This document shows, one piece after another, positions 1,393 through 2,103 of a stretch of DNA of 28,932 nt. How positions within the stretch are numbered: position 1 is the first letter of the stretch; the number at the start of each line of letters is the position of its first letter. This DNA comes from a virus (lineage: Duplodnaviria > Heunggongvirae > Uroviricota > Caudoviricetes): IMG/VR virus record IMGVR_UViG_2740892230_000022; one strand, given 5' to 3'. A program made the translations under genes and the position numbers. The notes beneath the pieces are model-generated. The model saw only the letters and a list, made by a program, of their open reading frames with translations. It was not told the DNA's origin and ran no database searches.

Positions 1393-1529
1393 TATTCATT
1401 CTTCCAGATTCCTTTCGGCAGAGCCTTATACTGAAATATACCTGGCTCAGGATATTGTTGAAAATATTATATGTTTGTCAAAAATAAAAGTTCTGTTAAG
1501 TGTTGATTGAGTGTTTGTTATACGGTCTA

Positions 1530-1856
1530 ATGGTTTTTTCAGCATTAAATATTTATCATTCATATGGTGTGGGTAGAGTGAATATTGATGAGGCGTCGGG
1601 GTGTTTCATCCTTAGGCAGCGTATTGATATAGTCAATGCAGAACGAGCAAAGGCCTTCAGCCGTTTGACAGTTTTGTTCTGTACTCCTGATCGTCTTTCG
1701 GGAAGAGACGTTATTATTCTGAATAGTGATGCTATACAGAGGGTTTGCGATGAGTTCATGGTGGCTAATTCAGAATTATTTGCTCTTGTTCAGGAGTACA
1801 ACAGAATAGCCAGGACCTGTGGTATGGATGAACTTCGGATTACTCATCTGGGGTAG
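1530..1856 (+). CDS. hypothetical protein (one-gene insertion downstream of tRNA-Arg), about 108 aa
   Basis: ORF track 1500..1856; first ATG at 1530, stop TAG 1854-1856. Sits in an AT-rich segment (about 30% G+C in hand-counted 60-nt lines) that is absent from the paralogous tRNA-flanking contig at 2765-2843. Rare codons (AGG, AGA, ATA, CTA). No family recognised; start codon uncertain. Confidence 0.4.
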   Translation: MVFSALNIYHSYGVGRVNIDEASGCFILRQRIDIVNAERAKAFSRLTVLFCTPDRLSGRDVIILNSDAIQRVCDEFMVANSELFALVQEYNRIARTCGMDELRITHLG

Positions 1857-2103
1857 ATACATATCTGGATTATCACCGGTTACGGTAAAAAGTGATTGCT
1901 TACTGTTTTTGTGAATGGCATTGCAGCAGCCGGATAATGTCAGTGCTGGCTGACGGTGTGCTGGTGGCGGGTGTGGTGGTTGCTGCTTTCCCGTTGCTGA
2001 AAAAGAAAACGCCAGACTGTTAGCCGGGTATCAGTTAGCGGGAGAAATTTTTAAATACTTCACAATTCAGGCGGTTGACTGTTGTCTGGTTTGNNNNNNN
2101 NNN

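Follow-up and report, generated by a model that had tools for sequence, protein, structure and literature searches.

A probable cargo cassette in the stxAB-equivalent slot of a non-Stx lambdoid prophage

What occupies the position of stxAB in a lambdoid prophage that carries no stx genes? The question is raised by the window (the whole stretch analysed, 28,932 nucleotides), in which an array of a methylase 3' end, a tRNA(CAU) and a tRNA-Arg(UCU) is present twice. A preliminary description made from the letters alone had noted both arrays, and an extra segment after the first that is missing from the second; both points were borne out, the arrays by ARAGORN. The segment had been described as holding one gene, but two ORFs are present, ORF92 and a DUF3927/TciB-like ORF. 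Because the window consists of 35 short contigs joined by N10 gaps, with lambdoid and P2-like genes mixed, the two copies are not shown as neighbours on one chromosome. The features are as follows.

1140-1212 and 1316-1392: the tRNAs of copy 1 (ARAGORN).
1316..1392, plus strand: tRNA-Arg, anticodon UCU, argO type, the left landmark of the cargo slot (ARAGORN; Rfam tRNA, 68 bits).
1393..1437, plus strand: post-tRNA spacer that aligns weakly with copy 2 and the Stx2a phage.
1438..1577, plus strand: AT-rich leader of ORF92, where both strands show weak sigma-70-like matches; it holds the non-conserved in-frame extensions.
1578..1856, plus strand: ORF92, 92 codons, GTG start, TAG stop; PHROG 2873; predicted soluble helix/beta-hairpin/helix protein.
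1892..2023, plus strand: DUF3927/TciB-like ORF, 43 aa from GTG 1892 or 28 aa from ATG 1937; PF13064; PHROG 1470.
2044..2088, plus strand: conserved right border of the slot, including the motif at 2061-2088 (alignment of copy 2, O104:H4, Stx2a, Stx1, JLK-2012 and mEp460).
2089..2093, plus strand: start of an STnc100/PasD-type sRNA gene whose remainder falls beyond the contig end (N gap 2094-2103).
2532-2607 and 2688-2764: the tRNAs of copy 2 (ARAGORN).
2765..2845, plus strand: near-empty slot of copy 2, 81 nt between the tRNA-Arg (2688-2764) and the motif (2846-2873).
2874-3082, plus strand: STnc100 of copy 2 (Rfam, 175.2 bits).
3084-3143, minus strand: AgvB of copy 2, convergent with STnc100 (Rfam, 56.6 bits).

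The window contains exactly two instances of the right-border motif, CACAATTCAG..GTTGAC..CTG, one at 2061-2088 and one at 2846-2873, where shuffles give an expectation of 0; the motif had been recognised earlier in both copies, with coordinates 2-3 nt off. Measured from the tRNA-Arg(UCU), the motif lies at 668 nt in copy 1 versus 81 nt in copy 2, close to the first estimates of about 670 and 80 nt. An STnc100-type sRNA gene is flanked by the motif on its 5' side and begins directly after it in copy 2, the Stx2a phage, O104:H4 and E2348/69. Rfam places STnc100 at 6697-6886 of the 100%-identical O104:H4 locus (L001), equivalent to window position 2089 onward; position 2093, at which the segment had been said to end, is merely the end of a contig. 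An opposite-strand AgvB or AsxR was found in copy 2 and in the Stx2a phage.

We also considered the motif as an RNA hairpin or terminator. Its folding does not surpass that of shuffles (z -0.4 to -1.3), and the Stx2a and Stx1 versions do not preserve the hairpin pairing; within 1380-2093, Rfam returned no match at E up to 1. On the left side of the slot, copy 2 and the Stx2a phage share a T-tailed hairpin-like element, GCGGGC(C)TTTTTTAT, that is degenerate in 1393-1437 (GGCAGAGCCTTATA), and the fold of the post-tRNA spacer is not significant (z -0.2 in copy 1 versus -1.95 in the Stx2a phage).

The same landmarks enclose the toxin genes. In the Stx2a phage LC616031.1 (L011), an argO-type tRNA-Arg at 2048-2124 precedes stx2A (2215-3174) and stx2B (3186-3455); the motif follows from ~3503, ~50 nt after stx2B, and is succeeded by STnc100 (3530-3735) and AsxR (3738-3790). 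Stx-phage homology to copy 2 begins at 2831-2845, and in the Shigella Stx1 phage 75/02 it begins 40 nt after stxB. Because stxAB lies between the same borders in both phages, the alignments support the view that a single slot is filled in alternative ways, by stxAB, by the ORF92 cassette or, as in the near-empty copy 2, by little at all, and the placement of the segment at the stxAB position in the preliminary description is upheld. Its further proposal, a comparison with lambdoid prophages, yielded as occupants stxAB, tciA-tciB, the near-empty form and the ORF92 cassette. The full-length segment is present at at least 95% identity in 1,183 of 5,426 complete E. coli genomes (~22%), many of them with degraded prophages, and the near-empty arrangement (at least 80% coverage) in 474 of the 5,426 (~9%), with top matches in O157:H7/O111-type strains. 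In E. coli the stx slot is thus filled mostly with content other than toxin genes.

The slot is on record as the PR' 'moron insertion site', with convergent sRNAs lying downstream of it (Tree et al. 2014, PMC4104026). The locus resembles it in lying downstream of Q/PR' and phage tRNAs and upstream of an STnc100-type and AgvB/AsxR-type sRNA pair, a NanS-p esterase and lysis genes, and in the swapping of cargo among related prophages (stx2AB, stx1AB, tciA-tciB, an AraC-regulator clade, near-empty). It differs in that ORF92 plus DUF3927 was not found named as cargo in the moron-site literature, and in that an own promoter and terminator, often part of the definition of a moron, are represented here by weak consensus matches only. 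The window contig starts inside the methylase gene, which leaves Q and PR' outside the window; in O104:H4 the order is Q (3256-4077), a hypothetical protein, the methyltransferase, three tRNAs, the cassette (6001-6701), STnc100, an iraM-like gene, a SASA esterase, holin and lysozyme, with Q through lysozyme on the plus strand apart from the minus-strand iraM-like gene. The novelty implied at first is not supported: the slot is published, and O104:H4 and many other genomes contain the segment at 100% identity. We conclude that the sequence, the families and the slot of the cassette are already on record, and that it is ordinary prophage cargo and no new kind of system. In anatomy and class, the segment is very probably a moron (cargo) cassette in the late-operon slot of a non-Stx lambdoid prophage, between phage tRNA genes and the STnc100-type sRNA, NanS-p esterase and lysis genes, where Stx phages hold stxAB. 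With the expression and role set out below, this is also the overall explanation of the segment that we consider likely.

ORF92 had been given as a 108-118-aa ORF. The frame is indeed open from 1500 (GTG) and 1530 (ATG) to 1856, giving 118- and 108-aa forms, but these extensions are not conserved in frame elsewhere, and the conserved frame is the 92 codons from GTG 1578. Three ORF92 clades, at 60-64% amino acid and 68% nucleotide identity, align over 279 nt without indels and with the GTG start and the stop conserved. Between clades dN/dS is 0.24-0.28, and substitutions fall on the three codon positions at ~24/21/42, a third-position excess with Fisher P of 5e-5 to 6e-4. Only the ORF92 frame is open; every other frame has stops in both clades, including the minus-strand frames over 1578-1856. 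Judged by this pattern of substitution, ORF92 is a genuine gene under purifying selection, and RefSeq, whose PGAP calls omit it in the window's clade, systematically leaves out a small gene for which that selection is clear. Within the clade there are just 3 differences (dN/dS ~0.6), too few to show current constraint. The Shine-Dalgarno-like sequence before GTG 1578 is weak in the window's clade, and the ETEC4075 clade has AGGAG.

These comparisons bear on the possibility that the segment is non-functional filler, chance or decaying frames in AT-rich DNA left by phage recombination. Such a reading would fit the missing PGAP annotation, the tiny size of the ORF92 family (20 cluster representatives among 1.84 billion), and the occurrence of ORF92 in one isolated phage, mEp460_ev081 being the sole tblastn match among 50,697 phage records, with none in P1-like phages. 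It would also fit the DUF3927 ORF, which lacks one hydrophobic segment here and carries an in-frame stop in another clade. Set against the conservation of ORF92 over its 279 nt, with all other frames stopped, the Citrobacter homologues that stand at the same kind of position at 40% identity, and a confident AF2 model from a shallow alignment, filler is very improbable, and is tenable only for the DUF3927 ORF.

The family had been called unknown. ORF92 belongs to PHROG 2873 (E 1.7e-70, full length; the profile is covered completely, positions 1-108 of 108, by residues 11-118 of the 118-aa form), of which it is a plain member. It also stands in GenBank as a 'hypothetical protein' (the 92-aa O3M_14235 of O104:H4 2009EL-2050; UniRef A0A0E0Y3H1 and A0A0A0FS28), WP_001017777.1 is the entry of the ETEC4075 clade, and many deposited contigs already contain the 92-aa and 108-aa sequences in exact form. 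The searches and signal-peptide check suggested in the preliminary description returned this PHROG match with no Pfam, NCBIfam or PDB family and nothing meaningful in PADLOC, and no signal peptide or hydrophobic N-terminus in the conserved 92-aa form. The protein has no hydrophobic segment (maximum Kyte-Doolittle 0.99). The AF2 model (pLDDT 85, shallow alignment) predicts a helix at 3-35, a beta-hairpin at ~36-46 and a helix at 50-81.

Fold searches with this model returned generic helical hairpins only. GapR/UPF0335 appeared at E 0.04-0.2 in a PDB profile search with a broad alignment, was gone (E up to 10) with a tighter one, and was absent from a Pfam scan of the broad-alignment members at E up to 10. 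A distant match at 22% identity among Mu-like tail genes (P0033) was treated as a coiled-coil false positive. ORF92 did not align with the TciA of JLK-2012.

Could the cassette be Stx-like in function as well as in position, a late-made toxin or virulence factor that phage lysis sets free? It shares the slot of stxAB, with argO on the left and the motif and STnc100 on the right; its first gene has a rare-codon profile resembling that of stx2A; and it is found in pathogenic lineages such as O104:H4 and EPEC E2348/69. The cassette differs from stxAB in length (~0.6 kb versus ~1.4 kb), in having no signal peptide and in having no relation to Stx in sequence or fold. ORF92 has no similarity to StxA, StxB or any toxin family in Pfam, NCBIfam or PDB, its predicted fold is a bare helical hairpin, and no stx-like sequence was found in the segment by Pfam or PHROG profile searches, as had been said at the outset. 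The matches listed come also from dogs, pigs, cattle, poultry, river water and wastewater. A Stx-like function is therefore extremely unlikely.

The rare codons noted from the start are real: 8 of the 92 codons of ORF92 are AGA, AGG or AUA. Established codon-anticodon rules assign these codons to the two tRNAs upstream. Counted as AGA+AGG+ATA per 1000 codons, ORF92 has 87, compared with 16.8 for the long-ORF background and 72 for stx2A (binomial P 1.7e-4), a level about five times that of the window and similar to stx2A. The enrichment could simply reflect AT-richness; in clades without detected adjacent tRNAs, these codons still number 33-54 per 1000. Since no convincing terminator lies between the tRNA genes and the cassette, the Q-antiterminated PR' late transcript would continue from the tRNA genes into the cassette, and because ORF92 is rich in the corresponding codons, to the same degree as stx2A, its translation may be aided by the co-transcribed phage tRNAs. 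ORF92, which has no enzymatic domain, would most likely be a cytoplasmic protein-protein binder acting through its predicted helical hairpin, probably as a non-essential accessory factor late in infection. We offer this specific molecular role tentatively and regard it as doubtful; the function of ORF92 is the ordinary 'hypothetical phage protein' problem.

The composition of the segment raises a second possibility for its expression. The G+C content had been put at about 30%; it is 41.3% over 1393-2058, versus a window mean of 52.9% and 54% in the methylase gene, and a value of 32% is confined to the leader, 1393-1529. The leader holds promoter-like sites at 1458-1485 on the plus strand (TTGAAA-16-AAAAAT) and 1481-1454 on the minus strand. 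The cassette might accordingly be a moron expressed in the lysogen, with its own promoter in the AT-rich leader, active in the repressed prophage and benefiting host or prophage through superinfection exclusion, defence or stress tolerance. This agrees with a late-operon cassette on the anatomy and differs from it only in timing and beneficiary. Classic morons typically have promoters of their own (Juhala et al. 2000, cited in PMC4104026). The reading is also in keeping with the retention of the cassette at high identity in so many genomes and degraded prophages, with the AT-rich islands that house ORF92 homologues in other lineages, and with the PHROG label 'moron, auxiliary metabolic gene and host takeover' of the TciB-like family. 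However, the 6 promoter-like sites in the segment are not above the 3.6 +/- 1.8 of shuffles, no terminator follows either ORF (in a scan that performed no better than shuffles), no PADLOC defence model matched, and the leader sequence varies between clades, being not conserved or out of frame. We consider expression from the lysogen unlikely, and prefer the late-operon cassette.

A terminator-like hairpin at 1692-1710 falls within ORF92, and other clades do not conserve it. Minus-strand ORFs at 1447-1563 (annotated by RAST in mEp460) and 1556-1759 had no family matches. The word 'insertion' in the preliminary description holds as far as extra DNA between conserved flanks is concerned, but not as a polarity. 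Direct repeats, terminal repeats and target duplications are absent, the inverted matches are short and internal, and the ORF list of the segment contains no transposase; a transposable or insertion element was set aside for its lack of terminal inverted repeats, target-site duplication and transposase.

The second ORF, first reported as a possible hydrophobic 28-aa frame at 1937-2023, is present with that end and belongs to a recognised family. The 43-aa form matches Pfam PF13064 (DUF3927) with 92.7 bits (E 1.3e-26) and the 28-aa form with 55.7 bits, against a cut-off of 25; the match to PHROG 1470 has E 1.5e-11. The PGAP annotation has the 43-aa form in O104:H4 and the 28-aa form in E2348/69. 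By hydropathy the window ORF has one hydrophobic segment, at residues ~17-36, and misses the first segment of the 50-54-aa TciB proteins. Because this segment is lacking, and because of an in-frame stop in the AraC-linked clade, where ORF92 is intact, the window ORF may be a non-functional remnant. The closest named relative is the tciA-tciB pair of JLK-2012: 27 of 28 residues are identical to TciB residues 23-50, and from 1924 to the end of the motif the DNA identity is 92%. JLK-2012 differs in having two TciB hydrophobic segments and a TerB gene; the window lacks the first segment, and no TerB ORF (tciA) was found within 1393-2093. The tciA and tciB names are those of the JLK-2012 record and PHROG 1470, and 'tellurite resistance / colicin resistance / inhibition of cell division' are tci names annotated by similarity; we found no literature support for these function names for TciB/DUF3927.

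The order of the two, a gene for a small soluble protein and then an ORF for a small hydrophobic peptide, recalls a toxin/antidote pair, with the DUF3927 peptide as membrane toxin and ORF92 as regulator or antidote; two E. coli clades have them linked. The partners nevertheless come apart. ORF92 stands without a DUF3927 or TerB neighbour in two loci (L013, L015), DUF3927 exists without ORF92, typically paired with TerB/TciA as in JLK-2012, and the cassette-plus-border query, which includes DUF3927, matches 2,142 genomes versus 1,312 for the ORF92 query. In the AraC-linked clade the presumed toxin is stopped while ORF92 stays intact. Such a pair is exceedingly improbable.

A fuller arrangement is found in two other lineages, in which a relative of ORF92 is followed by TciA (TerB domain) and TciB (two hydrophobic segments), and then by a holin-like ORF and lysis genes.

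Citrobacter braakii (L018): ORF95 at 3989-4276, TerB protein at 4477-4902, DUF3927 at 4899-5051, then holin-like and endolysin-like ORFs.
L017: ORF92 at 1039-1317, TerB protein at 1499-1924, TciB at 1921-2073, holin-like ORF at 2129-2551.

The gene order suggests that the window cassette is a version of this three-gene module without tciA. In the full module, ORF92 may work with a membrane-associated TerB/DUF3927 pair beside the holin, in envelope function, lysis timing or exclusion; since ORF92 stands without these partners in L013 and L015, a functional link would not be obligatory. One might go further and see in ORF92-TerB(TciA)-DUF3927(TciB) an unrecognised late-phase system immediately upstream of the holin, acting in lysis timing, envelope stress or exclusion, with ORF92 as a small helical adaptor gated by the co-transcribed phage tRNAs (AGA, AGG, AUA), a coupling that the rare-codon profile common to both genes would suggest for stx2A as well, and the common E. 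coli form streamlined, with ORF92 working alone. We regard this extension as a long shot.

The late-operon cassette offers a natural comparator for Stx phages, with the same promoter context, tRNAs and downstream sRNAs and a different cargo, through which to ask how late-operon position and phage tRNAs shape cargo expression.

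The motif CACAATTCAGGCRGTTGACTGTTGYCTG occurs exactly twice in the window (2061-2088 and 2846-2873; no match in 100 shuffles), 668 nt past the tRNA-Arg(UCU) gene in copy 1, the methylase-tRNA set that bears the cassette, versus 81 nt in copy 2, the near-empty set. The extra DNA reported after the copy-1 tRNA-Arg is real, and the ORFs noted within it appear in the ORF listing; the G+C figure, ORF length and gene count of the preliminary description required correction. The segment is indeed richer in AT than its surroundings, at 41.3% G+C over 1393-2058 (32.1% over 1393-1529) against 52.9% for the window, rather than at the ~30% first estimated.

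Features of the two copies (tRNAs by ARAGORN and Rfam, sRNAs by Rfam)
1140-1212, tRNA(CAU), copy 1
1316-1392, tRNA-Arg(UCU), copy 1
2532-2607, tRNA(CAU), copy 2
2688-2764, tRNA-Arg(UCU), copy 2
2874-3082, plus strand, STnc100 (175 bits), copy 2
3084-3143, minus strand, AgvB (56.6 bits, just over the gathering score of 56), copy 2

Of the ileZ-argN-argO trio, the middle member (tRNA-Arg UCG) survives in the two copies (1213-1315 and 2608-2687) as a broken remnant, with the 5' end ACCGCCA.TAGCT and the 3' end GTCCCCG.TGGCGGTCCA retained but no tRNA call from ARAGORN or Rfam. This tRNA is intact in O104:H4 (5834-5910 of locus L001) and in Stx2a phage LC616031.1 (1958-2034), and likewise missing from E2348/69 and mEp460.

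The 28,932-base window consists of 35 short contigs strung together by 34 N10 runs, so neither order nor adjacency across the N gaps can be trusted. Copy 1 occupies contig 382-2093 and copy 2 contig 2104-3321; position 2093, taken initially as the end of the feature, is a mere contig end, and the two "paralogous copies" most likely derive from different prophages of one genome. Pieces of lambdoid late regions are present in several variant copies, alongside P2-like genes.

Other genes in the window
11119-12129, baseplate J, P2-like
13020-14060, tail fibre, P2-like
14057-15328, second SASA esterase
15665-17167, minus strand, capsid, P2-like
17191-18060, minus strand, GPO scaffold, P2-like
18182-19933, terminase, P2-like
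20051-21154, portal, P2-like
24429-25199, DUF1627

The DUF1737/SASA esterase (NanS-p type) region (3447-3689 and 3592-5814) is made of several overlapping variant fragments with N10 gaps between them, at 3656, 3902, 3989 and 5159; a 740-aa ORF in this region spans N10 gaps and is an artefact.

The interpretation of the interval between tRNA-Arg and motif as the stx-equivalent position is correct. Megablast of copy 2 against phage genomes matched 351 records, mainly Stx-converting phages, and in the best-matching of these homology begins at query 340-354 (window 2831-2845), just 5' of the motif. Phage LC616031.1 carries stx2A and stx2B (2215-3455) between the end of tRNA-Arg(UCU) (2124) and the motif, followed by STnc100 (3530-3735; Rfam, 207 bits) and then AsxR on the opposite strand; in the Shigella Stx1 phage 75/02, homology to copy 2 begins 40 nt past stxB. 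STnc100 also directly follows the motif in O104:H4 (132 bits) and E2348/69 (124 bits). Its start corresponds to window 2089, which leaves copy 1 with just the first 5 nt of the sRNA gene. The convergent STnc100/AgvB pair of copy 2 has its equivalent in the STnc100/AsxR pair of the Stx2a phage. This architecture is that of Tree et al. 2014 (PMC4104026), in which moron (phage cargo) coding sequences, Stx2 being one, are inserted 3' of the Q-antiterminated PR', and convergent sRNAs lie in the interval that separates the moron from the next phage ORF. STnc100 is related to the PasD sRNAs of EPEC (Zhu et al. 2026). Considered as an RNA hairpin, the motif folds no better than shuffles, and its pairing is lost in the Stx versions; it is best read as conserved sequence on the 5' side of the sRNA gene and as the recombination border of the slot. 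The segment has neither terminal repeats nor target duplications, so homologous recombination in the conserved flanks is the likely route of exchange.

The larger ORF had been given as 108-118 aa. The E. coli homologues recovered by homology searches fall into three clades whose proteins are 60-64% identical.

Clades of the ORF92 family in E. coli
Clade 1, window type: O104:H4, EPEC E2348/69, phage mEp460
Clade 2, linked to an AraC-type regulator: loci L004, L008, L009, L014
Clade 3, ETEC4075: PGAP WP_001017777.1, 92 aa

The frame conserved between clades runs for 92 codons, from a GTG at window 1578 to the stop at 1856: 279 nt with no indels, at ~68-72% nucleotide identity. Sequences 5' of this GTG diverge or lose frame between clades (in L008 the TGA of the upstream frame overlaps the GTG), so the 108- and 118-aa forms are caller artefacts of the window clade; the 92-aa form is already in GenBank (e.g., O3M_14235, O104:H4 2009EL-2050). 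Inter-clade substitutions at codon positions 1/2/3 number ~24/21/42, a significant third-position excess (Fisher P 5e-5 to 6e-4), dN/dS is 0.24-0.28 (Nei-Gojobori), and the remaining frames are all interrupted by stops in both clades compared. By these comparative measures ORF92 is a real 92-codon gene; a spurious ORF is poorly supported.

First described as of unknown family, the ORF92 product matches the whole profile of PHROG 2873 (E 1.7e-70), a catalogued family annotated as of unknown function; Pfam, NCBIfam and PADLOC searches returned no match. The family is small: an HMM was run exhaustively against 1.84 billion cluster representatives and hit just 20 at E <=1e-3. The distant relatives (~40% identity), from Citrobacter and one metagenomic contig, also lie 3' of a Q-like gene. 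O104:H4 outbreak strains, like many others, carry the 701-nt segment with 100% identity. In a set of 5,426 complete E. coli genomes, 2,142 match it partially, 1,183 over at least 80% of its length and 1,312 in the ORF92 part; 474 have the near-empty copy-2 arrangement, the best matches including O157:H7 and O111 strains. The one phage record of 50,697 to contain ORF92 is mEp460_ev081, where it is unannotated. RefSeq PGAP is inconsistent: in the main clade (loci L001 of O104:H4 and L012 of E2348/69) it never calls ORF92, the DUF3927 gene being the sole feature, if any, under the matches listed, whereas the ETEC4075 homologue (L013) has a 92-aa hypothetical-protein call. In L004-L007, an IS3-family element (HTH_Tnp_1 and rve ORFs; e.g., L004 3762-4990) lies ~10 nt upstream of a 119-aa fusion ORF, P0017, that includes the ORF92 homologue; this insertion is found in at least 24 contigs.

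The segment carries a second ORF, possibly non-functional here, and is not the one-gene insertion first proposed. The 43-aa, GTG-initiated ORF at 1892-2023 matches Pfam DUF3927 (92.7 bits) and PHROG 1470, "TciB-like"; the 28-aa form from ATG 1937 scores 55.7 bits, and PGAP lengths vary by genome (43 aa in O104:H4, 28 aa in E2348/69). Residues 12-39 agree at 27/28 positions with residues 23-50 of the TciB protein encoded by phage JLK-2012, a protein that has two hydrophobic segments where the window protein has one. In JLK-2012, tciA-tciB fill the same slot without ORF92; other relatives have all three genes.

Three-gene relatives
Citrobacter braakii (L018): 3989-4276, ORF95 (ORF92 family); 4477-4902, TerB-domain protein; 4899-5051, DUF3927 protein, 50 aa; then holin-like and endolysin-like ORFs
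Contig L017: 1039-1317, ORF92 of ETEC4075 type; 1499-1924, TerB protein; 1921-2073, TciB; 2129-2551, holin-like ORF

TciB homology starts at 1924, just 68 nt past the ORF92 stop. The window cassette looks like a version of ORF92-TciA-TciB without tciA or the part of tciB for the first hydrophobic segment, and may have arisen by deletion. A toxin-antidote pair is a poorly supported reading of the two ORFs; in the AraC-linked clade the frame homologous to the DUF3927 ORF contains an in-frame stop.

An AlphaFold2 model of ORF92 from a six-sequence alignment (mean pLDDT 85, pTM 0.71) predicts helices at 3-35 and 50-81 flanking a short beta-hairpin at ~36-46; the best-conserved stretch, FSRLTV(L/I)F(C/S)TPDR.SG, would form the end of helix 1 and the hairpin. 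Hydropathy of the 92-aa product shows neither a membrane nor a signal segment, and a Stx-like toxin, as the slot might suggest, is poorly supported. Rare codons include AGA/AGG for 5/10 Arg and AUA for 3/9 Ile, together 87 per 1000 codons versus 16.8 in seven long window ORFs and 72 in stx2A (binomial P 1.7e-4). These codons are read by tRNA-Ile2 (CAU, lysidine-modified) and tRNA-Arg(UCU), and tRNA(CAU) and tRNA-Arg(UCU) genes lie directly upstream of the cassette. The codon usage fits co-expression with the phage tRNAs, and AT-richness alone could yield part of it.

The comparisons establish where the cassette lies and what borders it, that ORF92 is coding, which family each ORF belongs to and how the cassette relates to tciA-tciB. 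The gene order in the identical O104:H4 locus (Q, methylase, tRNAs, cassette, STnc100, esterase, holin, lysozyme), with no convincing terminator intervening, suggests that the cassette would be part of the Q-dependent late-operon transcript from PR', its translation probably aided by the phage tRNAs. ORF92 would be a dispensable accessory factor acting by protein binding, possibly with the TerB/DUF3927 pair in phages having both. The main rival, a moron expressed in the lysogen from its AT-rich leader, differs from late-operon expression in timing only. What was observed is on record already, the sequence in thousands of genomes, both families catalogued and the slot in the literature; the only mildly useful additions are the omission by RefSeq of a 92-codon gene under clear constraint and the place of this gene, in relatives, with tciA-tciB upstream of holin.

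Relatives hold further cargo. In complete relatives a second cargo lies just 3' of the cassette, between STnc100 and the esterase gene: an AT-rich island carries an iraM-like anti-adapter gene (RssB/RpoS pathway) on the minus strand (L001 6912-7247 in O104:H4; L012 3852-4187 in E2348/69). In the AraC-linked clade the same late-operon region has, after Q, a gene for a PemK/MazF-like toxin, along with a TolA-like ORF and a 241-aa AraC-type HTH regulator immediately 5' of the ORF92 homologue (L008 1746-2147 and 3969-4694; L014 1129-1557 and 2254-2979).
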